Origin: Kordia sp.
GTDB lineage: Bacteria; Bacteroidota; Bacteroidia; Flavobacteriales; Flavobacteriaceae
DNA: 24,000 nucleotides
Assembly (NCBI RefSeq): GCF_022447245.1
Contig: NZ_JAKVBC010000021.1
Span: 42,737 to 66,736, forward strand
Direction of reading: 5' to 3'
Part shown: positions 1 to 21,340 of the stretch, piece by piece
Layout: each line of letters starts with the position of its first letter
Numbering within the stretch: position 1 is the stretch's first letter
Notes under the pieces: model-generated
The model's input: the letters and a program-made list of their open reading frames with translations, nothing else
Told to the model about the DNA's origin: nothing
Databases searched by the model: none
Position numbers and translations under genes: made by a program

Positions 1-55
1 CATTCCAGCAAGTAGCTTCTAAGTCAACGATGATTATATTTTTTGTGTGATTCAT
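1..55 (-). CDS. DEDDh-type 3'-5' exonuclease paralog, N-terminal fragment only (gene continues past the left edge)
   Basis: Minus-strand ATG at 55..53 reads MNHTKNIIIVDLEATCWN, the same N-terminal motif as ORF 9522..10073 (MKTTNKILVVDLEATCWE). Nt 5..25 are identical to 10023..10043. Confidence 0.6.
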   Translation of the reverse strand, partial: MNHTKNIIIVDLEATCWN

Positions 56-65
56 TTTTAGTTTT

Positions 66-779
66 TTATTCAGATTCTAACACATTTTTTTGTGGAACAT
101 GTTCATCTACTATATGACGAATCATATTGCACCAGGCTTTTGAATTGTCTAAAATCCAGGCATCCGAACTGATAGCAATGTGCCCGCTTTCGGCAATGTA
201 TTTATCTGGATTGTTTTCTAAGATAATTTCCCAATGGTAGTTGTGTTCTTCTGTGAATTCTCGTAACATGGTTTTTAGTCGTCCACTATTGGAAACAGGT
301 TTGTCAAAGATCCAAGTGGCTTTTTTGACTTTGTTTTCTTGAAGAAAGTTTGCAATGAGTTGAATAGCTTCTGGTGTTTGTTTTACTTTTTTATAGGTTC
401 CGTGTACGCTTGATAAATCGCGGTAACAACCATCTAAACCTTTGAATAGATATGCGCCAGATAATGCACTTTCTAACATAATTAATACATTAAAACCATC
501 TAGATAGACTTCCTTTTCTGTCAATTGATTTGGTAATAGGCAAGTTGCAGCTCGTTTTTCAAGTTTGTGAGCAGCTTCACTCATTCCTTGTACAGCACGT
601 TGTTGACGATTGTTAAGTTTGTAACGATTTCCTACCAATGCCACAGACGATTTTTCAGAGAATCCTCTACTCAATAAATACGATATATCTTTGATAGCTT
701 CTCGCATTTTTGATTGCATGTTTGGATCGCCAAATAAACGATCGTCGCTTCCTTCTTTTCCTCTGCTTCTTGTTGCCAT
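66..779 (-). CDS. DUF434-type protein with C-terminal PIN/NYN-like (DUF5616-like) module; predicted RNA-binding or ribonuclease, function unknown
   Basis: 237-aa ORF. The N-terminal block REAIKDISYLLSRGFSEKSSVALVGNRYKLNNRQ fits my recollection of the DUF434 signature. The C-terminal half (YLDGFNVLIMLESAL..DGCYRD) resembles the nuclease-like module that usually follows it. Its stop lies 10 nt before the exonuclease-fragment ATG, so the two are probably co-transcribed. Confidence 0.55.
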   Translation of the reverse strand: MATRSRGKEGSDDRLFGDPNMQSKMREAIKDISYLLSRGFSEKSSVALVGNRYKLNNRQQRAVQGMSEAAHKLEKRAATCLLPNQLTEKEVYLDGFNVLIMLESALSGAYLFKGLDGCYRDLSSVHGTYKKVKQTPEAIQLIANFLQENKVKKATWIFDKPVSNSGRLKTMLREFTEEHNYHWEIILENNPDKYIAESGHIAISSDAWILDNSKAWCNMIRHIVDEHVPQKNVLESE

Positions 780-1131
780 GAGATTCGTTTGTTTTGCTTT
801 TAATAGAGTAATTGAATATTCTTTTTATCTTTTGTATTCCGAACTACAATTTTCGGTTCTTCTTTTCGTTTTCTTTGCTTACCCAAAGAAAGAAACAAAA
901 GAAAGGGAACTTTTCCAGAGGTATTTTTAGTTTTTCTTTTTTGGAAAAACTAAAACCGTATGAATTTTTCTAAATTTTAGTTCACTATGCTCTATTTTCA
1001 GTTATGGAGTTAATGAATTAACATTTCTCCAAGGCTTCGAAAATTTTTAACGAAAAATTCCTACTATACTGCAGAAAAGCAAAGTTTCAAACCAAATTTT
1101 TAATATTAAACTAAGCTAATTATTAAAAATG

Positions 1132-1884
1132 TTAGTTTCTAGTATTTTCTACTTTTACACAACTCTTTACAATGGTTTCTATTATTCTTTTCGGATCGCA
1201 AGCATACACGCCTGAACTCCAAACAGGATTTGCTTCAATGAGCGCCCAACCTTTGTTTGAAATGTAGCCAACATCAATGACAACTGCTTCAGGCAATTCT
1301 ATGGTTTTGTCAGCTAGGAATTCATCTAGAAAAGAAAACATTGCTGCTTCTTCATTTTTCAATATGCAATCTTTCAATTGAATTTCTCCATTATAGATAT
1401 AAGTTGACCAAGTTTGGACTTTTCTTTGAATGATAAAACAGCGAACTTCAATTGCCCAACTTACGACATCGGAAACGAAGACTTCTATGTTTTTATCAAT
1501 CGTACTGTAACCCTGGATTTCTTCTACGGAAGTGTACACACCTGCAGGGAAAAACTTGAAATCAACAGGTTTTATAAACTTGTTTTGAACGTTTTCAATA
1601 TTGCCAAAACGATTGTACTGAATAGTACGCAGTGTATATTTTAAAGGAACACTTGCCAACCAATCATCTGTAGGTTTTAGGAGTTTTAAATTGCATTGTT
1701 CTGCAACAATTGTGGTGAATAAATCTTCTCCATAAACCGCAATCACATTTTGTCGATATTCCTGAGGAACATTCCAACTTCCAAATCGCATCGCAGTAAA
1801 TTCTGTGTCAATCGTTGCCTGATTGATAATCATAGAATCTTCTGAGAAGTTTGGTGACAGTACGATGATTTTTTGTGTGTTCAT
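1132..1884 (-). CDS. small ATP-grasp enzyme, R2K-clade (DUF4343-like)
   Basis: 250-aa ORF with ATP-grasp-like blocks FIKPVDFKFFPAGVY, EVRCFIIQRKV and VIDVGYISNKGWALIEANPVWSSGVY (E-x-N metal/ATP site). It shares an ATGA start/stop overlap with the upstream gene. Confidence 0.6.
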   Translation of the reverse strand: MNTQKIIVLSPNFSEDSMIINQATIDTEFTAMRFGSWNVPQEYRQNVIAVYGEDLFTTIVAEQCNLKLLKPTDDWLASVPLKYTLRTIQYNRFGNIENVQNKFIKPVDFKFFPAGVYTSVEEIQGYSTIDKNIEVFVSDVVSWAIEVRCFIIQRKVQTWSTYIYNGEIQLKDCILKNEEAAMFSFLDEFLADKTIELPEAVVIDVGYISNKGWALIEANPVWSSGVYACDPKRIIETIVKSCVKVENTRN

Positions 1885-2552
1885 GATTTCTTTCTATTCT
1901 TTACCATCATTATAAATAGTTCTAAATGCTTTTGCAATGCTTCCGAATCTGCTTCTTTTCGCAATAGATAGTGTTCCAATTCAGGAAAGGTTTTAATGAT
2001 TGCTTCTTTGGTATATAATTCAACATCCGCAAATAAAGCAATCGTCATTCCCAACTGAAATGCAAAGGTTTTATACACTTCTATGACGGAACCGTTTTTG
2101 CCAAAATCTGTATAGTTTTTGAGTTCAATCGTATCTAACAATTCTATTTGCATGTTCACATCTGCACGCAATGCTGCTTTTGCTTGTATACGTAAGTCAG
2201 TTCTTGTAAAATGTCCTACCAAGGTTCGAGCACATCGTACAATACGCGATTCTAAAATTCTAGGAACGGTACGTTGTATATGATTTTGATAGACTTGCTC
2301 ATGTAAATCATAGGTTGTAAAAAGTGCATTGTTCAGCTCGTCAGCACTACCTTTGAAGTTTTGAACGACAATTCCGTTTTTTACAATTGCTAAGTTCGCA
2401 TTCACAGGTTTTGTAGTGTTGAAAATCGTTTGTGCTGTATACATTTTTACAACCTCATGATTTTTTTTGGTATCATTCAAACTATCTACAAAAAAACATA
2501 CATCGAGATCTTCTGAGTTTTTTGAGCCGAATATTTGATATGAAGGTTTCAT
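1881..2552 (-). CDS. predicted Pol-beta-fold nucleotidyltransferase
   Basis: 223-aa ORF. N-terminal FGSKNSEDLDVCFFV fits the G-S...D-x-D nucleotidyltransferase signature, followed by a helical C-terminal region. It is packed between the Pnkp and ATP-grasp genes (9-nt gap and 4-nt overlap). Confidence 0.45.
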   Translation of the reverse strand: MKPSYQIFGSKNSEDLDVCFFVDSLNDTKKNHEVVKMYTAQTIFNTTKPVNANLAIVKNGIVVQNFKGSADELNNALFTTYDLHEQVYQNHIQRTVPRILESRIVRCARTLVGHFTRTDLRIQAKAALRADVNMQIELLDTIELKNYTDFGKNGSVIEVYKTFAFQLGMTIALFADVELYTKEAIIKTFPELEHYLLRKEADSEALQKHLELFIMMVKNRKKS

Positions 2553-2561
2553 CCTGTTAGT

Positions 2562-3443
2562 TTAAAAGTTTCCGTAGAAGACTTGAAAGCATGGAAGTTG
2601 TAGTTTTTGCCTCCATAAATCCACTACTTGGTTTCTATCGTCTAATACGAACTCGATGTAATAATTGTTTTCAATATTGTTTGTAAATAATTCTTCTTTG
2701 ATGATGGAATCTTTTCGATTGTCTTTCGCTTTTCGCATCCACAATGCGTCGTATTCTACCTCATATTTTTCTAACCAACGCTCTGTTTCTGGTTGATACG
2801 TTCCATCTCTGCCAGATAGTAACAAGATTTTAAATCCTAAGTTTTTATAGTTTTTAACTAAGTTCACAATTGGAATGTTTGGCAAATCTTGTTCACATTT
2901 TTTGCCTTCAAATGGACTTCTGTTATTGATTAAAGATAGCGTTCCATCTAAATCGCAAATAATTGCTTTTGGTAGTGAAGCATCTTGGACTCTCACTTCA
3001 TTTTTTAATCTCTTTTCACCTTTTAGTTGCTTATGCATTTTAAGGATGACTTCTCTTCCGACGGGATTTTCGCGTTTTGAATCTCTTAGAATCGCTTCAT
3101 TGACATCAATCTCCATAATTTTCTCTTCTACTTTCACCTGATGTCCTGTTTCTGCTCGGTAATCAGCAGCAATTTGCTGAATACGTTCTAGGTTCGATTT
3201 ATCAAGATTTGTATCGTCAACAATGACATGTTTTCCATGAATTAGCGCTTCTTTGATTAGGAAATCGCGTGTGCTTTTGATGAATTTTTCATTTCCTTTT
3301 GAGAAATGTCCGTTATCCAGCATAGCGCGTAAACTATCGCGATTGATACGTTTATACATTCCTGGGTTTTCTGAAACGAGTTTCTTTGCGTATGTTGATT
3401 TTCCTGAAGCAGGAATTCCTTTTAGTATGATTATCTTTTTCAT
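2562..3443 (-). CDS. pnkp: bifunctional polynucleotide 5'-kinase / 3'-phosphatase (T4 Pnkp-like)
   Basis: N-terminal P-loop GIPASGKST is followed by HAD phosphatase motifs CDLDGTL, LLSGR and LDDR. The order is colinear with phage T4 Pnkp as I recall it (MKKIILTIGCPGSGKST ... DVDGTL ... DDR). I prefer ATG 3443 (MKKIIILKG) to the ORF-track start at 3482. Confidence 0.85.
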   Translation of the reverse strand: MKKIIILKGIPASGKSTYAKKLVSENPGMYKRINRDSLRAMLDNGHFSKGNEKFIKSTRDFLIKEALIHGKHVIVDDTNLDKSNLERIQQIAADYRAETGHQVKVEEKIMEIDVNEAILRDSKRENPVGREVILKMHKQLKGEKRLKNEVRVQDASLPKAIICDLDGTLSLINNRSPFEGKKCEQDLPNIPIVNLVKNYKNLGFKILLLSGRDGTYQPETERWLEKYEVEYDALWMRKAKDNRKDSIIKEELFTNNIENNYYIEFVLDDRNQVVDLWRQKLQLPCFQVFYGNF

Positions 3444-3450
3444 TTTTTCT

Positions 3451-4479
3451 CTAATTAAATTCGTTTGAATACGCTTTTTCAAATGTTGGACGAATGTATC
3501 TCCAAATAATTTGATCGTATTTTTTGTTGTTTTTCATCGCAAATAAAATTGCTGGATATTGAAAGGTTTTAAAGTACGCTGCGGTTTCTCTATCGGTTGC
3601 CAATTCTTTGTACGCTGCTTTTGCGATGTTTTCAATGTTTGTGAAATTAGCTCGTAATTCCGCTTCTACTTTTCGTACCCACGTATAAAATTCGTCTGGT
3701 ACATTTTCAATCCATTGCGTCAAAGTTCCTTTTGTTTTTAAGGTTTCCCAAATAGTTAATGAAGAAACTTGCGTTACAATTTTATGCAATTCAATATAAT
3801 CTTCAAACTTGATCTTTACTCGAAAACCGTTTTCAAACTGAATAACAAATCCTTCTTGATTTTTCCAGTTTAACGCTTTTAATTCTAATAAAGAAGAAAA
3901 GTTATAACGTGTTGGTAATGGAAATCCAATGTCTTGTAATGCTTCATTTTTTCCAGTAGCTGTATCTACGATGGCTAATAAAACCAATTTTTCTTCGGTA
4001 CCGTAATCTACGATAATTCTGTTTTCTGGGTAAATAATTTCAAAAACATAGGTTTTACTTCTATCCAATTTCTCAAAAGTATTGGCATATATTTCATGCA
4101 ATAACTTCGTTGCTTTTAGGGCTTGTTTGCTTGTAAACGAACCTCTAGTTGCTATATATGGCGTATTTTTTAACCAGTATAAAATACCCAATGAACCATC
4201 CATTTTTTCAAATACGTTAAATGGTACGTTTGGCAATTTATCGTATCCAATTTCTTCTACATTGAAGAACTTTTGAATAGGATTTGCTACAATATTATAG
4301 TCTTCATCCAAGATTAATCCTCTGCATTGCAAGGTTTCTTTGGTCCAATATTGATCATATTGCGCAGCTTGCGTATAGTTATATATCCAAAGATTTGCGT
4401 TTGGATGCTTACAGTTATGAATGTAACCATCAGTCATTGCTTGTTTCAATTTTTCGATATGTACTACACTTGTGTTCAT
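3451..4479 (-). CDS. ATP-dependent RNA ligase, Rnl1 (T4 gp63-like) family
   Basis: 342-aa ORF with nucleotidyltransferase motif I K-x-D-G in FEKMDGSLG. Blocks CRGLILD, KFFNVEE, FEIIYPENRIIV and EGFVIQF.NGFRVKIK are colinear with recalled T4 Rnl1 blocks (ECRGIMFE, EKFFNL, TKEDGSL, FEFVAPTNRIV, EGYVAV..GSHFKIK). Confidence 0.8.
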   Translation of the reverse strand: MNTSVVHIEKLKQAMTDGYIHNCKHPNANLWIYNYTQAAQYDQYWTKETLQCRGLILDEDYNIVANPIQKFFNVEEIGYDKLPNVPFNVFEKMDGSLGILYWLKNTPYIATRGSFTSKQALKATKLLHEIYANTFEKLDRSKTYVFEIIYPENRIIVDYGTEEKLVLLAIVDTATGKNEALQDIGFPLPTRYNFSSLLELKALNWKNQEGFVIQFENGFRVKIKFEDYIELHKIVTQVSSLTIWETLKTKGTLTQWIENVPDEFYTWVRKVEAELRANFTNIENIAKAAYKELATDRETAAYFKTFQYPAILFAMKNNKKYDQIIWRYIRPTFEKAYSNEFN

Positions 4480-4518
4480 GGTATTATTTTTAATTACATG
4501 ACAAATATTTTACAGAAG

Positions 4519-4537
4519 TACGCATTTATTTTGCGTA
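4519..4537. promoter_or_regulatory. operator copy A: TACGCAT-TTATT-TTGCGTA
   Basis: 19-bp inverted repeat 40 nt upstream of the ligase start, in the divergent gap to the rhodanese gene. The 18-nt left flank (4501..4518) matches the flank of copy B at 14 of 18 positions. Confidence 0.6.
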
Positions 4538-4639
4538 GTAAAATAGAACGTGTTTTTCCCTCATTCATACAGGTAGTTTACTCATTGTGTATTTTGTAAT
4601 GTATTCGGAATGATTAGTTTAATTTCAAAATTAGATCGT

Positions 4640-5254
4640 ATGAAACTTAGAGTTTTTATTTTTTTAGTGATGGTTGTTTTCTGTAGTATTATCGCACAAG
4701 AATTGCAAACACCAGATGATCCTTTGGAACGTATTGAACGTTTTACACAAGTATTTAATGCTTCTAAAGAAGGTGATCCTATGGTTAGTTTTAGAGATTA
4801 TAGGAATCTAATGAATGTAGTTGAAAAGCATCGCGAAGCACGTTTGGTAGATTTAGAAACGTTTGTGAGTATGAGCCAGCAAGAAGATGTTATTATTTTA
4901 GATGCAAGAGCCGAAGATTTGTATAAAAGCAGTCATATAAAAGGCGCCGTGAATTTACCTTTTACAAAGTTTACACAGCAGAATTTGATGCGTGTGATAC
5001 CGAATCCAGAAACTAAAATCTTGATTTATTGCAATAATAATATTCAAAATGATCCGATCAATTTTGCGTTAAAGACTGCAATACCTGCAAATAATCAACC
5101 GTTGATGTTAGCGTTGAATATTCCAACATATATCAATTTATATGGTTATGGCTATAAAAATGTATACGAATTGAATGATGTGATAGATGTGTTAGTCTCA
5201 AGAATGGATACTTCGTATATTCAGTTTGAAGGTACTAGTGTTCCTGAAAAGTAG
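4640..5254 (+). CDS. secreted rhodanese-like domain protein
   Basis: Signal-peptide-like MKLRVFIFLVMVVFCSIIAQ, then rhodanese blocks VIILDARAEDLYKSSHIKGAVNLP and KILIYCNNN (candidate active-site Cys). The ORF-track start 4610 is an alternative. Confidence 0.65.
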   Translation: MKLRVFIFLVMVVFCSIIAQELQTPDDPLERIERFTQVFNASKEGDPMVSFRDYRNLMNVVEKHREARLVDLETFVSMSQQEDVIILDARAEDLYKSSHIKGAVNLPFTKFTQQNLMRVIPNPETKILIYCNNNIQNDPINFALKTAIPANNQPLMLALNIPTYINLYGYGYKNVYELNDVIDVLVSRMDTSYIQFEGTSVPEK

Positions 5255-5365
5255 TGTTTGATTGTCGCGTAAGCGGTTGAGTGGTTTGTTTGAGCTCCTT
5301 TTAAAGAAGTTAAAAGAGCAAGTAACGAAGACGCGACCACGCCCTAAAGCGTGGATACGCCAAAA

Positions 5366-7219
5366 TTATTTTGATTGTTTAAAAGGTTTTAAGAAACTAT
5401 CTTTTTCTAGGTTTTCCAACGAAAAATCAAAGTCAGCTTGTTCCTTATTCGTAACAATTTCTGCACCTAACATTTGTACAATTTTGTTAAATGATAATGG
5501 TTTGCTCCATTGTTGGTACAATGCTTTTGTGGCTAAATTTGAGATTTCTGAGTTTCCAGAAACTCTTGCATTACCAGCACCAAAGTTTAATAATACAAAG
5601 CATTGTTTATCTTCCTCTGGAATCATCATTCCTAAAATGGTTTGCCATTGTACCGAAGCACATTTCACTTCTGCAAACAAATTATTTGGATTCATCATAT
5701 AGTTGTAATTGATGGAATCTCCTTTACCAATAATGATTTTATAATTGCAAGTTGCACTTCCAGAAAATACATTGTTGTTAATTAATGTAGGCATTTTTAA
5801 ACCTTGATTTGCGTATAAATATTCTGCCGCACCATTTGGCGCATCGGTCATATCACCTGAATACATTAAGTTTCCTTTTTGTTGGTTGTAGGTTGCGTTC
5901 CAACCAATTTTACCACCAATATTTAAACCAGATAGGTCTAAATCATGTGCACCCCATGCATTTTCCCAATATATACCAACGGCTAATTTTTTACCGTAAA
6001 AACGCGTACCAGTTGGAATGTTACCAACATACATTTTTTCAGAAGTTGGCAATGCATATGTTACATCTTCTGGTAAGAAAATTTTCTTGTCAGATAAATC
6101 AAAACGTTGCTTTATATATCTTAATATAAACGCATAGTTTTTTTCATAAATTTCTCCTTCATGCGTATACAATTTCTGCTTTGCTTTTTGCAACGTTGCA
6201 TTGTTTCCTAAGCAAGTAACAGTAATGGTATTTGATTTTACCCACGATTTACCATTACGAATTCTGTATAAAAAGGCATCTTGACCATTCATTCTACTGT
6301 AGCAAGCCGATAAAGCTTTGAATAAGGCAAATGGTGTTGCATTGTCTAACCAACGATTATCATTTGCGGTTAGTAACATATTTGTTACATTGTTCAATGA
6401 GTTTGAAACAAATGGTTTGTGATACTTTTTTGAAAGCTTACTAATCTTGTTAATTGTTTTTGGAGCTTTCGTTTTATATGCTAGGAACAATGGTTTGAAA
6501 CGATTGAAGATTTCAGCCAATTTTTCCAAACCAAATTTGTTAAATGCTTGTGTTGGATTATACGAACTGTTTTTAATCAATTCGATTAATTCATCATTTT
6601 TAATTAACAAAGTTGTGTCCGTACTTCTGTAGATGATGTATCTGAAAAACTCTACAGCATCTTTTGGATAAATGTTATAATACTCTGCTAACTTTATAAT
6701 AGCTTCTTTGTTTTTGATGTTTTCGTTACCAGTAAACTTGTATTTTAATTCATCTGCCAAGATTGAGATCAGGTCATCAATAGTTTCAAAAGTCAATGCT
6801 ATACCAGATTGTAACAAAGACAAGGATTTTTCTTGCATTTCTGCAACTGTATATGCTTTAATGACTTTGTATGATAATTTGATATTAGGAATGTTTAATA
6901 TTTCAGACGGAATGTAAATTTCGCTTTGGAAATTACTTCCATATGTAGAAATATAATGCATTATTTGTTCTGTTAATAATTTGCTACGAGAGCTATTCTT
7001 AATAGTACTCCATGACTTATGGAAGGTTTTGTTTAGATCATTACCGTTTAACTTCTCTTTCTTGTAATACTGGATGATTCTTTTCTTAGCCCAGAGCGCT
7101 TTTTCCTCAATAATATATCCTTCATCTGTAATGAATGGTTTGTTTTCTGAGCTTTTTCCAAAAATACTTAACGTTTTTTCTTTGGCGATAACAGCGTTAA
7201 ATAATTTTAATGTTTTCAT
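5366..7219 (-). CDS. 617-aa protein: long mainly helical N-terminal region of unknown family plus TerD-like C-terminal domain
   Basis: The long ORF is certainly coding. The C-terminal segment AHDLDLSGLNIGGKIGWNATYNQQKGNLMYSGDMTDAPNGAAEYLY parallels the TerD pattern (DLDxSxxxL..GKV..FYN..HSGDNxTGEG). I could not assign the N-terminal ~400 aa by eye. Confidence 0.5.
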   Translation of the reverse strand: MKTLKLFNAVIAKEKTLSIFGKSSENKPFITDEGYIIEEKALWAKKRIIQYYKKEKLNGNDLNKTFHKSWSTIKNSSRSKLLTEQIMHYISTYGSNFQSEIYIPSEILNIPNIKLSYKVIKAYTVAEMQEKSLSLLQSGIALTFETIDDLISILADELKYKFTGNENIKNKEAIIKLAEYYNIYPKDAVEFFRYIIYRSTDTTLLIKNDELIELIKNSSYNPTQAFNKFGLEKLAEIFNRFKPLFLAYKTKAPKTINKISKLSKKYHKPFVSNSLNNVTNMLLTANDNRWLDNATPFALFKALSACYSRMNGQDAFLYRIRNGKSWVKSNTITVTCLGNNATLQKAKQKLYTHEGEIYEKNYAFILRYIKQRFDLSDKKIFLPEDVTYALPTSEKMYVGNIPTGTRFYGKKLAVGIYWENAWGAHDLDLSGLNIGGKIGWNATYNQQKGNLMYSGDMTDAPNGAAEYLYANQGLKMPTLINNNVFSGSATCNYKIIIGKGDSINYNYMMNPNNLFAEVKCASVQWQTILGMMIPEEDKQCFVLLNFGAGNARVSGNSEISNLATKALYQQWSKPLSFNKIVQMLGAEIVTNKEQADFDFSLENLEKDSFLKPFKQSK

Positions 7220-7301
7220 TTTCTTTATTGTGATTTAAAATAATAAGTGAGGTGTATGCTTTCTTTGAATGAATGTGTAATAGGAACACCTTTTACCTAT
7301 T

Positions 7302-7337
7302 TAAAAAGACGAAGAGTACTATATCCACTATACTCTT
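7302..7337 (-). terminator. intrinsic-terminator-like hairpin inside the leader of the 617-aa gene
   Basis: Minus strand reads AAGAGUA-uaguggauauag-UACUCUU followed by cgUCUUUUU. The stem is 7 bp, and the hairpin lies ~85 nt upstream of the start codon at 7219. Confidence 0.45.
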
Positions 7338-7361
7338 TCGAGCACTGGAGTCGAACCAGTT

Positions 7362-7444
7362 TATAGGAACTCTTTGTGTCATTTTTTGAAAACTAACGGA
7401 AAGTAGGATCTTGGAAAAATAATAGGAACTTTCTGTGTCAGTTT
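7362..7444. repeat. two 24-nt direct repeats, 20/24 identical
   Basis: 7362..7385 is tataggaactctttgtgtcatttt and 7421..7444 is aataggaactttctgtgtcagttt. A third ATAGGAAC core lies at 7280..7287. Confidence 0.7.
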
Positions 7445-7529
7445 GTCTTTATATTTTATTTCTAAATGTGTTTAGATCGTATGTCGTATGTACTTTATTA
7501 CTAACGACAGTACAAATGTTTTATAGAGA

Positions 7530-7548
7530 TACGCAATTATTTTGCGTA
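7530..7548. promoter_or_regulatory. operator copy B: TACGCAA-TTATT-TTGCGTA (perfect palindrome)
   Basis: 19-bp perfect inverted repeat upstream of the leader and the 617-aa gene. Its flank ACAAATGTTTTATAGAGA is shared with copy A. Confidence 0.6.
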
Positions 7549-7590
7549 GTTTTAGAGAAGAAATTTTTTTCAAATGTAGTATGTTGATAT

Positions 7591-7898
7591 TCAGTATGTT
7601 TTGGGGAAGAAATATGTAAAAAAAGCGAGCCGAAGTTCGCTAAAAGTTAATCCTGAATTTAACAAAACATGTGGAAATACTGAATTACAATTTAAGTGAC
7701 AAGATCCTTCGCGACTTGCGCAAATATTTGTTAAACAACGATCAGTTATCCCAACAGGACACTGATTATTACAAGATGTTGCTGTAACACAACCAATAAC
7801 TTCTGAAATATTGATTGCTCCACCACTTAAATTCAATTTGCTTAAAGATTATATTGATTTTTGTTGAGACTCAAGTTTTTAAGATTTCTTTTCTTCAT
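7591..7898 (-). pseudogene. frameshifted paralog of the GG-leader Cys-rich peptide
   Basis: Leader MKKRNLKNLSLNKNQYNL (7898..7845) stops at TAA 7844..7842. The rest of the leader and the core (SLSKLNLSGG-AINISEVIGCVTATSCNNQCPVGITDRCLTNICASREGSCHLNC..) lie in the -1 frame from 7848. The two frames overlap stop-free only at 7845..7848. The core frame also reads through its own terminator hairpin. Confidence 0.6.
7617..7641 (-). terminator. intrinsic terminator (UUCG-loop hairpin + U7)
   Basis: Minus strand reads AGCGAAC-UUCG-GCUCGCU (one A.C mismatch) followed by UUUUUUU. It is near-identical to the terminator at 8003..8034. Confidence 0.6.
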
Positions 7899-8002
7899 AA
7901 TACATGATTTTAAAATTGATAATGAATTAAAAGTAACGGATAGTCGAATCTCATAAAACAAACAGCTATCGCAATTTAGTGAATTATAGTAATCTTTAAA
8001 CA

Positions 8003-8034
8003 GTAGAAAAGAAAAGCGAACCGAAGTTCGCTTT
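8003..8034 (-). terminator. intrinsic terminator (UUCG-loop hairpin + U-tract)
   Basis: Minus strand reads AAAGCGAAC-UUCG-GUUCGCUUU followed by UCUUUUC. It begins 8 nt after the stop of ORF 8042..8260. Confidence 0.75.
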
Positions 8035-8041
8035 ATATTTA

Positions 8042-8260
8042 TTAAACTCTTGGTTTGCTGATACATTCTCCTGGTCCGCATTTTGTATGATATTGACATG
8101 TGTGACATTGAGTAGGCATTGTTGCAGGCGGACACGTAAATGTATGGCAAGATGCAATGCAAGAGTTATCGAAGCTTTCATTTCCTCCGAATATAGAAGT
8201 AGATAAATCAGAAATTGATTTTTTGTTTAGGCTTAATGATTTTAAATTTTTTTTCTTCAT
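8042..8260 (-). CDS. double-glycine-leader, Cys-rich bacteriocin/RiPP-precursor-like peptide (72 aa)
   Basis: Leader MKKKNLKSLSLNKKSISDLSTSIFGG is followed by a 46-aa core with 7 Cys (NESFDNSCIASCHTFTCPPATMPTQCHTCQYHTKCGPGECISKPRV). The gene has its own strong terminator. Confidence 0.7.
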   Translation of the reverse strand: MKKKNLKSLSLNKKSISDLSTSIFGGNESFDNSCIASCHTFTCPPATMPTQCHTCQYHTKCGPGECISKPRV

Positions 8261-8376
8261 GAGATGAATTTTAACGATTAATAATGTTCAAATCAATAGA
8301 GAAAAAGAATCTAAAACAATTTATGTAAGTCGTAATTGTAAAAATACGAGTAGTTAAATTTTATAAGAAATAATGT

Positions 8377-8673
8377 CTATGACATTGGTAATATTTCTAT
8401 TACTTTGCCATATACATTTTTTGTCCATCCGTTAATTCTTCCGTGATTGTTTCCGATTAACAATCCGCGTCTTTCGTTTTTTCCTTTTACTAAATGCGTG
8501 AATACATTTCCGCGTACTTTACAAAAGACGATATCACCAACTTCGCAATCTTCCCAAGAAATAGGTTGCAACTTTACAGATTGCTTTGATTTTAAAAGTG
8601 GCAACATAGAATTACCAGGTTCTTTTGAAATGATGGTTTCTCCATCGAGTAGTTTTTGAATTTTCCAATTCAT
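8377..8673 (-). CDS. stand-alone minimal S24/S26-type Ser-Lys peptidase domain (98 aa)
   Basis: GNSMLPLL matches the G-D/N-S-M-x-P nucleophile motif of the LexA/UmuD/signal-peptidase clan. A candidate general-base Lys lies in THLVKGK. No DNA-binding or membrane segment is present. Confidence 0.6.
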   Translation of the reverse strand: MNWKIQKLLDGETIISKEPGNSMLPLLKSKQSVKLQPISWEDCEVGDIVFCKVRGNVFTHLVKGKNERRGLLIGNNHGRINGWTKNVYGKVIEILPMS

Positions 8674-8760
8674 AATATTAGTTTTTTAAAAGTTATATGT
8701 GCCATTATTGACACACATATCTTTTTGAAAACTTTTTTCAAAAGTGTTTCAATGAACTTT

Positions 8761-8775
8761 TCTCGATAATCGAGA
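8761..8775. promoter_or_regulatory. perfect 15-bp palindrome TCTCGAT-A-ATCGAGA (second motif class, copy 1)
   Basis: The core CTCGATAATCGAG is identical to 10211..10223. With flanks, 8762..8790 matches 10211..10239 at 26 of 29 nt. Confidence 0.55.
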
Positions 8776-8843
8776 TTTATATATTTTGAGCTTGCTTAAA
8801 TGTATGAACATACATTTTTTGCACATAACTCGTTGGCTTACTT

Positions 8844-9500
8844 TTAAATATTTGCAATTTTAGTGAAGAACTGCGCAATCTTTTTACGTAGTGAAGTTTT
8901 TTCTTGAATTATTGGTTTTTGTACTATTTCTTTAACTAGAATCTTTTCTGGTTCACCAAAGACAATTACTTTTTTAGAAGAATATGAAGTGCATGCTTCT
9001 AGTTTTGTTAGAATATTAAGTGCAAGATTTCGAATTTCAGGGTTTATTATTGCTGTGTCTTCTAAAAAAGGATTTTGAAACATAACATTCAAATCATAAT
9101 AATAATCACGAAATTTATAAGATATGTTGTACGTTTCATCTGGATTAAAGTCAAACTCTTTAATCATTTTGCCAAGAATTGAATATAGAGTATTTACATT
9201 TTTAGTTTGTAAAATTTTGATACATGATTGCTCTAAGATGAAGACTTTTATAAAGTCATCACCATATTGAATACGAGATTCCTGTTCAAGTTCTGATAAA
9301 CAGCTTTCTGATCGATAATTGATGGTAAGTATTGTGTAGAAAAATGAATTTTTTTCTAGGTTGTTTAAGATGTTTTCACAACCATAGAGAAATTCTTCAA
9401 ATCCAGAAATGGATTGTTTGCCAACTAAGGTATTATATATCTCTAATTGTAAAGTTTCCATGTTATAATGGTTAAAAAACGAGCAAAAACAATTAGCCAT
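8844..9500 (-). CDS. hypothetical protein, no recognisable motif
   Basis: Long ORF directly downstream of the exonuclease gene. The first ATG is at 9500, with an alternative at 9461 (METLQLEIYN); the ORF-track start 9512 is a TTG. Operator copy D lies inside its last codons. Confidence 0.5.
   Translation of the reverse strand: MANCFCSFFNHYNMETLQLEIYNTLVGKQSISGFEEFLYGCENILNNLEKNSFFYTILTINYRSESCLSELEQESRIQYGDDFIKVFILEQSCIKILQTKNVNTLYSILGKMIKEFDFNPDETYNISYKFRDYYYDLNVMFQNPFLEDTAIINPEIRNLALNILTKLEACTSYSSKKVIVFGEPEKILVKEIVQKPIIQEKTSLRKKIAQFFTKIANI
8872..8890. promoter_or_regulatory. operator copy D: TGCGCAA-TCTTT-TTACGTA
   Basis: Same TRCGYAA-N5-TTRCGYA architecture and same TCTTT spacer as copy C. 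It lies ~200 nt upstream of the S24 peptidase start and overlaps the 3' end of ORF 8844..9500. Confidence 0.45.
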
Positions 9501-9521
9501 TAGGCTAATCAAAAACTCATC

Positions 9522-10073
9522 TTACTGATTGTTTAAACACCAATGTAAGATTTTTGCGGTGTTGTTGGCATCATCTACACCTCGGTGATGTCTTCCTTCT
9601 AAAGGAATTCGGAGTTGTTTTAATGCTCTGGCCATTCCAATGCCATGTCGCATACTGTTGCAATGTCTAAACTCTTCTTTGACGTTGATATGTTGATCTC
9701 CAGAAGGGAAATCGACATATTTTTTTCTGCATTCTTCCAGCATTTTGCTACGATCATACGCACCGTAACTTGCCCAAGTATATGCTGAAGCATCATACTC
9801 GTCAAAGAGTATATCAATCGCATCTTCAAAAGAAACGCCTTCTTGCGCTACCATTTCTGGCGTGATTGATGTCAGTTCTGTGCAAAATCGACTGATTTTG
9901 GAATGTTCAGGAATTACGAGAATTCCTTGCCGTTTGGAAATTTCCCCAGAAAGAACATCCAATTCGCAAATACCAGTTTCGATAATCTCACTTTGATTTC
10001 GTTGGTATTCACCATCTTGTTCCCAGCAAGTAGCTTCTAAGTCTACTACTAGAATTTTGTTTGTTGTTTTCAT
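9522..10073 (-). CDS. DEDDh 3'-5' exonuclease (ERI-1/KapD-like)
   Basis: Exo I motif VVDLEATCWE, mid-protein acidic motifs, and C-terminal HRGVDDANNTAKIL (H-x4-D of the DEDDh subgroup). Confidence 0.8.
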   Translation of the reverse strand: MKTTNKILVVDLEATCWEQDGEYQRNQSEIIETGICELDVLSGEISKRQGILVIPEHSKISRFCTELTSITPEMVAQEGVSFEDAIDILFDEYDASAYTWASYGAYDRSKMLEECRKKYVDFPSGDQHINVKEEFRHCNSMRHGIGMARALKQLRIPLEGRHHRGVDDANNTAKILHWCLNNQ

Positions 10074-10167
10074 CTTAAAAACTGTTTTTTTAATAATTAA
10101 TTTTTGTTGACAGATGAAAGCCGACGCACAATTATGTTAAGAACTTGTGCAAAGAATATAATTTATG

Positions 10168-10186
10168 TACGCAATCTTTTTACGCA
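10168..10186. promoter_or_regulatory. operator copy C: TACGCAA-TCTTT-TTACGCA
   Basis: Lies in the divergent gap between the exonuclease gene (start 10073) and the WYL regulator gene (start 10280). This position is typical of an autoregulated divergent promoter. Confidence 0.55.
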
Positions 10187-10210
10187 CTTTAGAATTTTTT
10201 ACTATTTTCA

Positions 10211-10223
10211 CTCGATAATCGAG
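10211..10223. promoter_or_regulatory. palindrome CTCGAT-A-ATCGAG (second motif class, copy 2)
   Basis: 13-nt perfect palindrome identical to 8762..8774, located between operator C and the WYL gene start. Confidence 0.5.
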
Positions 10224-10279
10224 ATGTAGATATGTTGAGTCTTATTTCGAAATGGATGATTTTAACTTATACTATACGC

Positions 10280-11293
10280 ATGGCAATTAATAAAAACGCA
10301 CTGATTCGATATAAAACGATAGACAAATGTTTGCAAAATCATTATCGTCAATGGACCTTAAATGATTTGATTGAAGCTTGCTCAGACGCTTTACACGAAT
10401 ATGAAGGTCGTGAAGTAAATGTAAGTAAACGAACCGTTCAACTCGATATTCAAATGATGCGTAGTGATAAATTGGGTTACAACGCGCCCATTGTGGTATA
10501 CGATCGTAAGTATTATAAATATGAAGATGAAGAGTATTCCATCACAGATATTCCATTGACAGAAAACGATATGAATGTATTGTCTGAAACTGTAGAAATG
10601 TTGAAGCAATTCAAAGATTTCTCGTTATTCTCAGAATTAGGTGGCATTATACAGCGTTTGGAAGATAAGGTATATACGGAAAAAACACATCAAGCTGCGA
10701 TTATTCATTTAGATAAAAATGAAAATTTAAAAGGATTGCAACACTTGGATTTGTTGTATCAGGCGATTTTAAAAAAAATTGTGTTACGATTAACGTATCG
10801 TTCGTTTAAGGCACGTGCCGCCTCCGAAATTATTTTCCATCCATTCATTCTAAAAGAATACAACAATCGTTGGTTTTTGATTGGAGTCATAGGCAATAAG
10901 CAACAGATTACCACTTTTGCTTTAGACCGAATTATCAATGTCGATTACGATTTAGATATTCCATACAGAAATGAAGCGTTTAATGGAGATGAGTATTATA
11001 AAAATACCATTGGAGTTACGGTTTTAGATCAAAAACACATTCAACGTATTGTGCTTAAAATAGACAAAAGCAACGCGCCGTATGTAACTACGAAGCCTTT
11101 TCATACTACGCAGGAAATTATTTCGGTACACGAAGATGGAAGTATTACAGTGCTATTACAAGTACATATTAATTTTGAATTGGAACGTTTGATTCTTGGT
11201 TTTGGTGATTCTATTGAAGTGATTGAGCCGACATTGTTACGCAAACGCATTCGAAAAAAGTTAGAAGCGGCAGTCAGTAAGTATACAGAGTAA
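10280..11293 (+). CDS. WYL-domain transcriptional regulator (HTH + WYL + C-terminal extension)
   Basis: N-terminal wHTH-like NKNALIRYKTIDKCLQNHYRQWTLNDLIEACS...VSKRTVQLDIQMMRS, then a central WYL-type block FHPFILKEYNNRWFLIGV. The preferred start is MAINKNAL at 10280; the ORF-track start is 10232. Confidence 0.8.
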   Translation: MAINKNALIRYKTIDKCLQNHYRQWTLNDLIEACSDALHEYEGREVNVSKRTVQLDIQMMRSDKLGYNAPIVVYDRKYYKYEDEEYSITDIPLTENDMNVLSETVEMLKQFKDFSLFSELGGIIQRLEDKVYTEKTHQAAIIHLDKNENLKGLQHLDLLYQAILKKIVLRLTYRSFKARAASEIIFHPFILKEYNNRWFLIGVIGNKQQITTFALDRIINVDYDLDIPYRNEAFNGDEYYKNTIGVTVLDQKHIQRIVLKIDKSNAPYVTTKPFHTTQEIISVHEDGSITVLLQVHINFELERLILGFGDSIEVIEPTLLRKRIRKKLEAAVSKYTE

Positions 11294-13595: not shown

Positions 13596-15587
13596 TTATT
13601 TTTCAATGAGTAACATCATGATGTGTGCAGCGCTCCAACTAAAGTTTTTGGCATTTAATCCTTTGCCTGTAAGCGGATGGTAATTTTCTCTGATAGGAAA
13701 ACCTTTTTCCAAAAGACCTTCACAACCTGCCAAAATCTGTAAACTAGCTTTGTCTGCTTCTGCTGTGAAACCATAATTGAGCAATCCTTTGACGCCAAAA
13801 TACGCTTGATCTAACCAATTTGGTCCACGCCAGTATCCTTTGAGAGGATTGAATTTTGGATGATCAGCACTCATGGTTTGAAACGGAACTTTTGTAAAAA
13901 ACTTGGCAGAATTCATCATGTTATTTTTAACACCGTCAGCTTGTACTTGCGTTGCAACTTTTGCCCATAATGGAGTCCAACCTTCAGAACCTTCACCTTT
14001 TATAAAAGTAGTTCCTTCAAGGTTTGTATCGTAAAACCACTGATCTGTAGCATCGTAAAATTGTTGTTGAATACGTTTTTTTAAAGCTTCTGCTTCTGTG
14101 GAAAACTTCTCAGCATCTTTATGATTTTCAATGGCATTTGCTAGCTCGGCTAAGAATAGTTTTTCAGCATATAAATATGCGTTTAAGTCTACAGATTCTT
14201 AATCGAGCGAATACGCACCTTCTACATTTTCTAAAATTTTGGAGTTGTCAAAACGAATGGCATTGTCCATTCCGCTTTCCCATTTGGCGGCAATCAAAGA
14301 ACCGTCAGTAGAACCATATTCACACAAGTCATCTTGGTCATGATCACGTTTTGCATACCACCAATAATGATACTTTTTAAGTTTTGGATACATATACTTT
14401 ACAAAGTCAATATCCTTGTCTTTTTCATACACTTTAGAAACTGCCCAAGCAGATAATGGCGGTTTGGTGTCTCTATAATTATGAGCTTCAATCGTAGTAT
14501 CGCGATAAACGCAATCGGCTACAAAACCATCAGGTTCTTGAAAAACAAACATCAACTTGATTTGCTCTTTTGCCAATTCTACATCAAAATAGGAAAGTCC
14601 CACCGCATGTTTCCATGAATCCCAAGACCAAAAACCATTAAACCATTTGTAATGATAACTTGGAAATAAACCTTCGTGCTTAATTTCTCCAGCAGGAATA
14701 CGCCAATTATTTTGTAAAGTCAAGATAGTTTTGGCAAGTAACGATGTGTATTTTTCTTCTGAAAATAGTTCCTTTTTTAACGTTTGAAGCTTGGTAAGTT
14801 GTTTATTTTTTTCAGATAGACGTTGTTTTACGATACTGTCAAAATTCACAGTTTGAATCAATGCTTGTTCATCCTCCCAAGAGTATTCTGGAAAGATAAA
14901 CGTTTGTGCGCAGATAAAACTTTTTTGCTCATTTGGCTGTAAATCTATGTCTTTAAAATAAGTTGTATATGTTGTACTGTCAATAGTTACAGAAGAAACA
15001 TCATTTAAAAATTGAATATATCCTTTAGCAGTTGTTTTATTAGAATTGACTTCAATACGGTTTCCTTTTTTAGAAAAGTGAATTCCATTATCAAACAGCT
15101 TTCCACTTAGTTGAGGTGTTATTGTTTGATCAGTATCAGACGTATTTGTGATGTTGTTTTTAATTAAAACAGTATGACCTGATAGATATACGAGTTGTTG
15201 TGATAAAGTAATTCCTTCGGACTTAAAGTTTTGTTCTAAATGACTAAGGTAACTTACAGAATTTGCAGGTTCCCACGAGTGATCTTTTAGGGTAAAATTT
15301 GCCAAAGATGTTCCTGCCCAAACACCGTTTTGTTCAGTCATTAAAAAAGGTCCAGAAAAACCTGAAACTGAAATTGTATCTGAGAGCGAATAAGCAAACC
15401 ATGCACCTTGATCAGAGAACATTAATCCAGATTTGTCAAATGCATGATCTGGAGTAATTGAAAAGTCTAGAATATTAGCACTGGCTTTATAATAACTGTG
15501 GTTATTAATGGTTTTAACAGGAGTTGGATTTGACTCACAACTTGCCAATATCACTATGAAGCATATAAAAACAACCTTTCTTAACAT
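13596..15587 (-). pseudogene. (alpha/alpha)6-barrel glycoside hydrolase, GH63/GH37 (YgjK/trehalase-like), interrupted by one in-frame TAA
   Basis: ORFs 14199..15587 and 13596..13919 are in the same frame. The sequence between them translates cleanly (..YSLD*ESVDLNAYLYAEKLFLAELANAIENHKDAEKF..WTPLWAKVATQ..). The only defect is TAA at 14201..14199. Also present are a lipoprotein signal MLRKVVFICFIVILASC and the motifs FWSWDSWKH and SWSAAHIMMLL. Confidence 0.75.
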
Positions 15588-17304: not shown

Positions 17305-17514
17305 GATATATTTTTTAAAGTTATACCTTAAAGTTAAGAGATTTTTAGCTGCTGTTTTTTGGATAGTAGTCGTGATTTATAAATTACAGACACTGGTTGA
17401 AAAATTAGGTTTCATCAAGAAACATTTTGATACTTTATTAGCCAATTTAGATACTATATTAATGGATGTTAAAGGAATGCATTGAAATAAACTACGGAAG
17501 TTGTATTTTTAAGA

Positions 17515-21322: not shown

Positions 21323-21340
21323 TACTATTTGTTTAGTACT

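Follow-up and report, generated by a model that had tools for sequence, protein, structure and literature searches.

A WYL-linked island of RNA repair genes in Kordia and a covarying, in part tRNA-like RNA module upstream of a large uncharacterized protein family

The window analyzed here is a 24,000-nt stretch of DNA from Kordia sp. (NCBI RefSeq assembly GCF_022447245.1, contig NZ_JAKVBC010000021.1, positions 42,737 to 66,736), whose first 11,293 nt hold genes for an RNA ligase (rnl1) and a kinase-phosphatase (pnkp), several further predicted nucleic acid enzymes, a 617-amino acid (aa) protein that we call P617, and a helix-turn-helix (HTH)-WYL-WCX regulator. The window probably contains most of a WYL-governed regulon that responds to damage of RNA, most likely tRNA, together with a candidate Ro/Y-RNA-like particle. 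This reading is carried by the identities of the genes, the catalytic motifs of their products, the conservation of the neighborhood, the positions of a 19-bp palindrome, and the covariation of a structured RNA module that precedes the P617 gene. The gene map for positions 1-11293 was built from the listing of open reading frames (ORFs) and profile searches (Pfam, NCBIfam, PADLOC, PHROGs). The features on which the argument depends are listed below with their E values.

66..779, minus strand: DUF434 + DUF5616 protein (COG2454), 237 aa; PF18481 E 2e-54, PF04256 E 1.2e-14
1132..1884, minus strand: R2K-clade ATP-grasp, 250 aa; PF18299 E 2.6e-27, PF14243 E 2e-20, phrog_7313 E 8e-25
1881..2552, minus strand: NT223, a 223-aa predicted Pol-beta-fold nucleotidyltransferase (NTase) of an unnamed family; from invariant residues, AlphaFold2 (AF2) model and Foldseek
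2562..3482, minus strand: Pnkp, 5'-kinase + HAD 3'-phosphatase, 306 aa; PF25109 E 5e-50, PF13671 E 5e-15, phrog_505 E 6e-89
3451..4479, minus strand: Rnl1, T4-type RNA ligase 1, 342 aa; PF09511 E 1e-16, TIGR02308 E 4e-20, phrog_562 E 1.5e-66
4519..4537, no strand: operator-like palindrome O1 (TACGCATTTATTTTGCGTA), 40 nt upstream of the rnl1 ATG
5366..7219, minus strand: P617, 617-aa protein of a large uncharacterized family; no family match
7243..7300, minus strand: RNA module M3; covariance model R1 58.2 bits, E 6e-15
7307..7383, minus strand: RNA module M2 with tRNA-like insert; covariance model R1 27.1 bits, E 1e-5, outside the training set
7392..7442, minus strand: RNA module M1; covariance model R1 47.6 bits, E 9e-12
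7530..7548, no strand: operator-like palindrome O2, perfect TACGCAA-N5-TTGCGTA, at the start of the module array/P617 unit
8377..8673, minus strand: S24/LexA-peptidase-like small protein, 98 aa; GNSMLP motif, weak TIGR02228 match
8844..9512, minus strand: 222-aa ORF, no family match, 9 nt downstream of the DEDDh gene
8872..8890, no strand: operator-like palindrome O3, upstream of the S24-like gene and within the 3' end of the 222-aa ORF
9522..10073, minus strand: DEDDh 3'-5' exonuclease (KapD-like), 183 aa; PF00929 E 9e-15, NF005838 KapD E 1e-21, PADLOC DEDDh E 1e-12
10168..10186, no strand: operator-like palindrome O4, in the divergent DEDDh/WYL promoter region
10232..11293, plus strand: HTH-WYL-WCX regulator, 353 aa; PF13280 E 2e-13, PF25583 E 2e-15, PADLOC WYL E 1e-27

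Repair enzymes and their conserved neighborhood

The rnl1, pnkp, NT223, and R2K genes overlap or lie 4-9 nt apart, the R2K/NT223 overlap being 4 nt. Rnl1 is a member of PF09511 (61.7 bits, cut-off 28.3) and aligns with T4 Rnl1 (2C5U, E 2.4e-16), with EKMDGSL placed on TKEDGSL (the KxDG motif) and FRVKIKFED on HFKIKSD (the KIK motif). With TIGR02308 it reaches 72 bits against a cut-off of 242, the alignment being limited to residues 30-240, and equivalog-level likeness to T4 RnlA, including the C-terminal tRNA-specificity domain, was not found with this model. The best solved relative of Pnkp is Capnocytophaga gingivalis Pnkp1 (4XRP, E 2e-61), followed by T4 Pnkp (1LTQ, E 1e-41), and full-length alignment to these structures places the P-loop (GIPASGKST) and the DxDGT motif (CDLDGTL) in register. 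The protein combines kinase and HAD phosphatase in a single chain (PF25109, 169.7 bits), and its true start is probable at M14, near position 3443.

NT223 has no Pfam, NCBIfam, or PHROG match, and a Pfam domain was found in none of its 110 homologs. Residues G9, S10, D15, and D17 are invariant among these homologs and form an hG[GS]...DxD motif. The AF2 model of NT223 has a pLDDT (predicted local distance difference test) of 94.8, and the top 22 Foldseek matches in the PDB are all Pol-beta-fold NTases with a helical C-domain, among them ANT(3'')(9)/AadA and Hailong HalB; the best probabilities are 0.95-0.99, but the E values are 2e-3 to 2e-2, with none at E<=0.001. Judged from this model, NT223 has a Pol-beta NTase fold and belongs to an unnamed family. 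Assignment to RlaP (PF10127) was considered and rejected, there being no Pfam match at E<=0.01 and an hhalign probability of 0.1 against an RlaP from the same island. The R2K ATP-grasp belongs to its clade by the R2K_2 and R2K_3 profiles (95.9 and 74 bits, cut-offs 26). Among the NT223-anchored loci described below, the window-type R2K gave tblastn matches only in Kordia and thus is not a general member of the Rnl1/Pnkp operon; in Chryseobacterium islands an R2K gene follows that of the RlaP NTase.

The DUF434 protein consists of a helical N-domain followed by a DUF5616 NYN/PIN-like domain, both with profile scores above cut-off, and the DUF434/DUF5616 family is classed as NYN-type PIN-like (PMC5499597). 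The 183-aa DEDDh protein scores 56 bits on PF00929 and E 1e-21 on KapD. The small S24-like protein has a homolog in Flavobacterium reichenbachii (locus L068) that carries a weak PF00717 match. The regulator possesses WYL and WCX domains (PF13280, 50.7 bits; PF25583, 57.4 bits), and an HTH, undetected by Pfam, is suggested by the PADLOC model that spans residues 60-334; its true start is probably M17. Its best solved relatives are WYL/DeoR-type regulators, with E about 1e-5 and over the C-terminal half only. Its identity is 59-64% in most Tenacibaculum and Flavobacterium loci, compared with only about 40-55% for NT223 in those loci. Among the known defense systems in PADLOC, only the generic WYL and DEDDh models matched.

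The first-pass annotation of the window, made from the letters and an ORF list, had named a T4-type Rnl1, a Pnkp kinase-phosphatase, a tightly coupled Pol-beta-fold NTase and R2K ATP-grasp, a DUF434/PIN-like protein, and a divergent WYL regulator, and these identifications agree with the profile, structure, and spacing data above, as do the KxDG, P-loop, and DxDGT residues that it expected to align with characterized Rnl1 and Pnkp. It had also listed two DEDDh paralogs. The 183-aa protein is indeed a DEDDh exonuclease, but the 222-aa ORF had to be dropped, as it shows no similarity to the 183-aa protein and no family match; homologs of this ORF were found only in Kordia (L002) and in a metagenome contig, L077. 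The nearest named relatives of the window proteins are from Kordia species (75-86% identity), and L077, which is 98% identical over P617, is a sister contig of the window.

With NT223 as the anchor, 67 genome loci were collected, mostly from Flavobacteriia, Saprospirales, Chitinophagia, and Cytophagia, with a minority from cyanobacteria, Armatimonas, Eubacteriales, and one archaeon; the non-Bacteroidota loci have NT223 alone. Genes were counted by tblastn in the 48 loci of at least 15 kb, with window proteins and proteins of related loci as queries. Rnl1 and Pnkp each occur in 40 of the 48, the WYL regulator in 34, RlaP and TatD in 24 each, DUF434 in 23, a RING-domain protein of 746 aa in 22, Hen1 and a Pnkp-type ligase in 20 each, the S24-like protein in 14, TROVE in 7, DEDDh in 6, P617 in 3, and the window-type R2K in 2. 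A Flavobacterium island, for example, has the WYL gene next to a unit encoding the 746-aa protein, 180-aa and 256-aa proteins, the NTase, Rnl1, Hen1_N, PNKP_ligase, Pnkp, S24, and TatD, and in other genera the same regulon is found with RtcB, RlaP, Thg1, Hen1/Rnl, TROVE, and tRNA arrays. The neighborhood is conserved while its gene content varies, which places the block in a family of islands that are conserved as a whole but modular in composition. The co-localization foreseen by the first-pass annotation is thus present for Rnl1, Pnkp, and WYL with NT223, but not for the exact window gene set (R2K + P617 + Rnl1/Pnkp), which is specific to Kordia.

A 19-bp palindrome at the promoters of the island

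A blastn search with the non-coding stretch upstream of the P617 gene returned a 21-nt core with 100% identity to Flavobacterium loci, and this led to a 19-bp palindrome, TACGCAA-N5-TTGCGTA, with the general form T[A/G]CGCAA-N5-TTGCG[T/C]A. The window contains four copies, O1-O4, all in promoter regions, compared with 1.23 expected at <=3 mismatches. The sister contig contains six (0.06 expected), and over all loci there are 184 in 2.09 Mb versus 8.8 in shuffles, an excess of about 20-fold. Every one of the 37 WYL-positive genome loci has at least one palindrome. Most Bacteroidota loci have a copy between 29 and 48 nt ahead of the rnl1 start, typically at 45-46 nt, and this rnl1-upstream site recurs in Kordia, Tenacibaculum, Flavobacterium, Saprospirales, and Chitinophagia. 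In the non-Bacteroidota NT223 loci the palindrome is absent save for two weak matches in one of them (L058). In Chryseobacterium and Winogradskyella it precedes the rtcB, RlaP, and TROVE genes. Sites equivalent to O3 lie 117-118 nt upstream of the S24-like gene in two other Kordia loci (L002, L003), and the O4-type arrangement, between divergent DEDDh and WYL genes, is also seen in L003 and in two loci of Saprospirales and Taibaiella (L026, L055).

In the window an AAnATTTG box follows the palindrome within about 10 nt. This box resembles the Bacteroidetes -7 element, and the site therefore overlaps the promoter. The palindrome shared by four units of the window, together with its recurrence upstream of rnl1, defines the proposed WYL regulon, and its co-occurrence with the regulator gene makes the WYL protein the likely binder. 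These sequence patterns indicate that the units of the island are co-regulated. The window has no separate palindrome for the DUF434 gene.

Another perfect palindrome, CTCGATAATCGAG, is present in two copies where 0.01 would be expected, at 8762-8774 in the 5' region of the S24-like gene and at 10211-10223 just upstream of the WYL gene start. Among the loci examined it is found only in the Kordia relatives (L002, L003, and L077), and it could serve a second regulator as a binding site or form a hairpin in RNA.

RNA modules, P617, and the intervening genes

Three copies of an RNA module precede the P617 gene. Each is composed of a helix P1 (4-6 bp), an asymmetric loop (5' AAA / 3' C), a helix P2 (5 bp plus a U-A pair), and a terminal loop that begins GUUCCUAU and ends (A)UAC, with a variable insert between. 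M3 is the most conserved subtype and is always the last module, ending about 23 nt before the P617 ATG; the GTTCCTA of the last module lies about 55-70 nt from this ATG. Upstream of 80-odd P617 homologs GTTCCTA occurs two to six times. Among 247 GTTCCT[AG] sites, 197 have a perfectly complementary, TA-preceded P2 strand within 130 nt (chance estimate about 8%), and 42 distinct P2 pair combinations were found. In an alignment of 62 modules the paired cells amount to 94.3%, compared with 70% in shuffles, and the double-change cells number 202 versus 67; the covariation score of 0.79 (0.32 when shuffled) was reached by 0 of 500 shuffles, and slid controls of the alignment were <=55% paired. P1, which was not used for picking the modules, is 89.5% paired, with compensatory changes in six of six pairs, and the RNAalifold prediction agrees with this structure.

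In the window the covariance model has three matches and no more (7442-7392, 7383-7307, and 7300-7243). Across 1.13 Mb of NT223-anchored loci (67) its matches are confined to the three loci that encode P617, and in 0.83 Mb of P617-anchored loci 193 of the 196 matches are on the same strand just upstream of the P617 gene. The module RNA thus co-occurs exclusively with P617. This extends to cyanophage S-CRM01, in which a 32%-identical P617 homolog (g174) sits in the middle of a tRNA cluster, with three modules upstream of g174 and one directly downstream. Rfam yielded no match in the window at gathering thresholds and nothing above noise when 7100-8900 was scanned permissively; the related loci matched tRNA and tmRNA only, and no Rfam 15 family fits the module. 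A reading of the module core (GAAGTTCCTAT / (G)AAGTTCCTAT) as an FLP/FRT site was rejected, given that it has no inverted arm and that its flanks covary as RNA helices; (G)AAGTTCCTAT resembles the yeast FLP/FRT arm, and this likeness was set aside as coincidence.

The modules carry tRNA-like elements in two forms. In M2 (type A), within the leader of the P617 gene, the insert contains a T-arm hairpin, aCTGG-TTCGACT-CCAGt (5-bp stem, loop TTCGACT), a 4-bp GNRA hairpin, and a GUGG-containing D-loop-like stretch. Seven M2 homologs keep this order, with compensatory pairs in the T-arm stem and in P1/P2 (RNAalifold), and the succession of T-arm, capped stem, and D-like element would correspond to a tRNA entered via its anticodon stem. 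Type B, found in many other loci, is a full cloverleaf with an open acceptor stem, D-arm, and T-arm (50-54 bits on the Rfam tRNA model), in which a 40-47-nt insert in place of the anticodon loop is a module closed at its P1 end. ARAGORN fails to call these elements as tRNAs. Both permutations appear, at the level of sequence, to give the same object, a tRNA-shaped body with the module helix as its anticodon arm. The same design is seen in bacterial YrlA RNAs that are bound by Ro60 (PMC4201824).

The first-pass annotation had noted a structured leader or small RNA with a T-arm mimic in front of P617. The mimic is present, in M2, and is part of a covarying structured RNA tied to P617 by co-occurrence, a plausible counterpart of the cognate noncoding RNA (ncRNA) that it envisaged; the 1.1-kb gap upstream of the P617 gene is not a single leader and also holds two peptide genes with terminators. 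Its description of P617 as TerD-like was not sustained. The C-terminal part has no PF02342 match at E<=10, nor do ten diverse members of the family, no PDB sequence match was found, and in the region claimed to be TerD-like (residues 411-560) the AF2 model has per-10-residue pLDDT means of 27-58. What is left of the label is a DLDLS...SGD stretch that resembles the TerD motif. TROVE was likewise tried and rejected for P617, with no PF05731 match and an hhalign probability of 0.1 between the P617 family and a TROVE protein that a related island encodes.

Close homologs of P617, with 66-86% identity, number more than 2350 in Flavobacteriaceae and Weeksellaceae, and the family comprises at least 1469 clusters at 50% identity (E<=1e-3). 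No Pfam or NCBIfam match was found for P617 even at E<=10, nor any PHROG, PADLOC, or PDB sequence match, and no Pfam domain in ten diverse members. Members of the family stand consistently in RNA-repair islands. In Chryseobacterium, P617 loci have the order WYL, HopJ / RtcB, gap, P617, RlaP, R2K, kinase, Thg1, with TROVE added in one variant; a Winogradskyella locus has a 21-tRNA array, an RNase H-like gene, two R2K genes, a 2-kb gap, P617, RtcB, GIY-YIG, and DUF434. In 30 metagenome P617 loci of at least 12 kb, RtcB is present in 17, WYL in 16, RlaP in 14, and R2K in 7. True tRNA genes are enriched near P617, at 175 in 819 kb, and ten loci have arrays of 10-21. Arrays of 10-24 tRNAs that cover most amino acids stand beside P617 homologs at L073 1761-3837, at L008 20-1724, and in the phage locus L154, and further P617 loci with such arrays are L082, L092, L116, L148, and L153. 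P617 is a candidate RNA-binding scaffold.

In the modular islands the position of P617 can be taken by other large proteins. Among 44 islands that have Rnl1, Pnkp, and NT223, TROVE (7), P617 (3), and the RING protein (22) never occur together. The Saprospirales and Taibaiella loci L026 and L055, in which DEDDh adjoins NT223-Rnl1-Pnkp, have the order WYL-TROVE-...-S24-DEDDh-NT223-Rnl1-Pnkp, which is the window set with Ro replacing P617. The RING protein (746 aa; L068 6385-8625 in F. reichenbachii and 21 other loci) is in P617's position. It contains a prokaryotic RING finger and matches the MXAN_6230/SCO0854 family at E 6e-35, below the cut-off; its similarity to P617 is weak and lies in the DLDLS...SGD stretch (E 0.05, from a single comparison), and no module RNA precedes its gene. 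As a separate observation, TROVE islands have two to three tRNA genes each at L066 14244-14474, L048 14839-15062, and L014 19059-19632, the L066 group ending 22 nt before a palindrome; Rfam detected no Y RNA families in these TROVE islands with tRNA groups.

Three further genes lie among the units of the window.

4610..5254, plus strand: secreted rhodanese with signal peptide; profile match
7591..7897, minus strand: second GG-leader Cys-rich peptide gene, disrupted by a stop within the leader; terminator hairpin 7641-7624
8042..8260, minus strand: first GG-leader Cys-rich peptide gene, intact, 72 aa; terminator hairpin 8034-8013

The rhodanese gene is divergent from rnl1 and shares with it the intergenic region that contains O1; Kordia (L002, L003) alone keeps it at this position. 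Within the 1.1-kb gap (7220-8376) follow one another, in minus-strand order, the first peptide gene, its terminator, the disrupted second copy, its terminator, O2, and the 200-nt three-module array. Both peptide genes encode the leader MKKKNLKSLSLNKKSISDL...GG and have near-identical terminator hairpins, and the 72-aa peptide has a weak class I lanthipeptide leader match (E 0.005). By their sequences these genes look like precursors of ribosomally synthesized and posttranslationally modified peptides (RiPPs) or bacteriocins, inserted between two regulon units. The first-pass annotation had described a compact minus-strand block. The gene cluster is real, but the plus-strand rhodanese gene interrupts it, and, judging from the sister contig, the island extends past the left edge of the window. 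In L077 the continuation just left of window position 1 (17232-21770) has two further palindromes and, beyond DUF434, a DUF5677-like gene, RlaP (PF10127, E 7e-68), a 304-aa gene, a second RlaP-like gene (E 1e-27), and a 235-aa gene. Profile searches of the window found no phage structural genes, and there are no tRNA genes in the window.

To the right of the island, immediately after the WYL gene and in the same orientation, lies the gene for a 750-aa secreted protein of the endonuclease/exonuclease/phosphatase family (11335-13587, plus strand); only Kordia conserves it at this place, and it probably has no relation to the regulon. An MGH1-like/GH63-type glycoside hydrolase is spread over two minus-strand ORFs, 13596-13919 and 14199-15587, separated by a 280-nt gap. 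The 462-aa ORF covers positions 4-131 and the 107-aa ORF positions 264-356 of the same profile, and this split coverage suggests a disrupted gene.

Proposed mechanism, alternatives, and known systems

In the reading that we consider probable, the HTH-WYL-WCX regulator would bind the 19-bp palindrome overlapping the promoters of four units, either to repress or to activate them: the rnl1-pnkp-NTase-R2K genes, possibly with the DUF434/NYN nuclease gene; the RNA-module array with P617; the S24-like gene; and the DEDDh gene with the 222-aa ORF, transcribed divergently from the gene of the regulator itself. The regulon would be switched by a signal, a nucleic acid or nucleotide, that the WYL domain binds. 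Pnkp would then convert 2',3'-cyclic-phosphate/5'-OH ends to 3'-OH/5'-phosphate ends, DEDDh and the NTase could trim and refill 3' ends, and Rnl1 would seal. P617 may bind the conserved helix (P1, AAA/C loop, P2, and the GUUCCUAU...AUAC loop) of the RNAs transcribed upstream of it, and as one of these RNAs presents a tRNA-elbow mimic, the two could form a particle of the Ro/Y-RNA kind, serving tRNA-directed enzymes as a scaffold or as a decoy. M3, the last module and a conserved subtype whose spacing to the start codon is fixed, probably serves autoregulation.

A broader proposal is one that we hold tentatively and consider somewhat more apt to fail than to stand. P617 and the GUUCCUAU-module RNAs may be a widespread new class of ribonucleoprotein in the role of Ro60 and Y RNA, in which the module helix tethers P617 to a tRNA-shaped body in either of two circular permutations, and which works on or protects tRNA under attack. 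Bacteroidota would use it within an RNA-damage-sensing WYL regulon and cyanophages within tRNA clusters.

Several observations weigh against the preferred reading. TROVE and P617 are both present in three P617-anchored loci, and the exclusion between them is therefore not absolute. The AF2 model of P617 has a mean pLDDT of 64.9 and is confident only in the helical middle part, and it yielded no fold or profile match and no recognized RNA-binding domain. In NT223, the strand at residues 50-58 has invariant N51 and N53 rather than D/E where the third catalytic carboxylate is expected, and because of this replacement it may not be a conventional polymerase. WYL regulators of this architecture are known to respond to single-stranded DNA (ssDNA) or DNA damage, and the S24-like protein, as well as the TatD, GIY-YIG, and RNase H-like genes of related islands, would fit a DNA-damage response. 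The block is not purely a repair unit, because the rhodanese and peptide genes sit inside it. R2K enzymes are predicted protein-peptide ligases (PMC4431377), for which the preferred reading offers no role. Finally, the modules could act only in cis.

This last point can be developed into an alternative, in which the module array is a cis-acting 5' leader only, either an autoregulatory site or a sensor of a tRNA signal, with no Ro/Y-like particle. The modules are on the same strand as the P617 gene and directly upstream of it, no terminator separates them from the P617 ORF in the window, and the last is a highly conserved subtype at a fixed distance from the ATG, all of which suits a leader. 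Such a leader would be compatible with the best explanation, but as the whole account of the modules we think it unlikely, given that the copy number varies from two to six with one copy downstream of the phage gene, that the Chryseobacterium array lies between rtcB and P617, and that the type B cloverleaves with open acceptor stems would have the shape excised by RNase P and RNase Z. A DNA-damage response as the primary function, with WYL sensing ssDNA and with Pnkp, the exonuclease, and the ligase processing DNA ends, appears quite improbable. The conserved enzymes are RNA-specific (Rnl1, RtcB, RlaP, Thg1, Hen1, TROVE) and tRNA-like RNAs and tRNA arrays accompany the islands, although the HTH-WYL-WCX architecture with its WYL/DeoR-type best solved relatives, the LexA-like S24 peptidase domain protein in the regulon, and the presence of TatD, GIY-YIG, and RNase H-like genes elsewhere all favor it. 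The RNA-repair operon of Salmonella is itself induced by DNA damage (PMC7790460), and a trigger of this kind would still be compatible with RNA repair as the output.

We give a similarly low probability to a conflict system of damage and repair (toxin/antidote or abortive infection), in which DUF434/NYN, and perhaps DEDDh, would cut RNA and the ligase set would restore self RNA. The predicted NYN/PIN-like nuclease in the block is consistent with this, as are the control of several defense systems by WYL regulators, reflected in the PADLOC WYL models, and a proposal cited in PMC5499597 that RNA ligases neutralize linked nucleases in some operons. However, PADLOC gave no match beyond its generic models, DUF434 occurs in only 23 of 48 large islands compared with 40 of 48 for Rnl1 and Pnkp, and it is without its own operator in the window. 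Chance juxtaposition, or decayed prophage or mobile-element cargo without common function, is very improbable: Rnl1, Pnkp, and R2K do have phage relatives (PHROGs), rhodanese and peptide genes are interspersed, and composition differs between genera, but the neighborhood is kept across several Bacteroidota orders, the palindrome lies about 20-fold above chance at fixed distances from start codons, and the profile searches turned up no phage structural genes.

Bacterial RNA repair has been studied mainly via Rtc/RtcR, Pnkp-Hen1, and T4, and open questions of the field are what turns repair on and what part is played by Ro-like scaffolds with their RNAs. The island described here would be a second, independent design, with a WYL regulator, a sharply defined 19-bp site, and a modular gene set, and because its hosts are easily grown (Kordia, Flavobacterium, Chryseobacterium, Tenacibaculum) and the site is defined, the regulatory signal is directly testable. 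The analysis also brings out a large unannotated protein family, an RNA motif linked to P617 from flavobacteria to a cyanophage, and tRNA look-alikes whose anticodon arm is swapped for the module motif. If the particle forms, the solution of a protein ring with a tRNA-like RNA would have arisen more than once, and it would offer a way to learn how tRNA is shielded or recycled in cells and phages when anticodon nucleases attack. In the literature searched we found no link between RNA-repair operons and WYL regulators, none between RNA repair and R2K, and nothing relevant for the module motif. The WYL palindrome regulon, the NT223 and P617 families, and the RNA module were undescribed in this literature and in Pfam, NCBIfam, PHROGs, PADLOC, and Rfam, although a mention in Burroughs and Aravind (2016) is possible. 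Pnkp1, Rnl1, RlaP, TROVE, and Hen1 are already known and the parts list follows published syntax; the protein-RNA pair is the most novel element of the island.

The relatives in kind of the regulator are PafBC, DriD, BrxR, and CapW, with which it shares the HTH-WYL-WCX domain architecture, a promoter palindrome, and a divergent, autoregulated placement; unlike in those cases, the genes regulated here would be for RNA repair. The heal-and-seal system of phage T4 resembles the island in its adjacent rnl1 and pnkp genes, with KxDG, KIK, P-loop, and DxDGT all aligning. In contrast to T4, the window genes are chromosomal and are accompanied by a WYL regulator, an extra NTase, R2K, nucleases, and an RNA-protein pair, and no cognate anticodon nuclease was identified beside them. 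The Pnkp1-Rnl-Hen1 system, reported in 10 species with hen1 unlinked (PMC4411300), is related through Pnkp, as Pnkp1 (4XRP) is the closest to the window protein and in Flavobacterium and Taibaiella the regulon has Hen1_N and PNKP_ligase genes beside that of Pnkp. In the window itself, however, profile searches found neither Hen1 nor a Pnkp-type ligase (PF16542), the ligase is of the Rnl1 type, and, unlike in the reported system, the genes sit in a regulated island.

The RNA-repair syntax of Burroughs and Aravind (2016), as summarized in PMC7824862 and PMC12776372, combines a ligase, an NTase, a kinase/phosphatase, a scaffold, and an ncRNA. The island has the same part list, with canonical RlaP genes just past the left edge in L077, but the NTase coupled to Rnl1/Pnkp is not RlaP by hidden Markov model or hhalign. 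The proposal of the first-pass annotation that the locus is a variant of this syntax, under WYL control and with a scaffold that is neither Ro nor SPFH, accords with the neighborhood, the motifs, the palindrome, and the lack of TROVE similarity in P617. The closest worked-out parallel, by analogy, appears to be the Salmonella rsr-yrlBA-rtcBA operon, which is induced by tRNA fragments via RtcR and whose tRNA-like YrlA has been suggested to be a decoy for anticodon nucleases (PMC7790460). Here an HTH-WYL-WCX regulator and a palindrome replace the sigma-54 CARF activator, P617 is present and not TROVE, and the helix motif is different, with no Rfam Y RNA model matching. The two nevertheless share a ligand-sensing regulator, presumed for the WYL protein, an RNA ligase, and a large scaffold-like protein, with RtcB in Rnl1's place in many P617 islands, and both have an adjacent ncRNA in which, in what may be an analogy only, a helix replaces one arm of a tRNA-like body.

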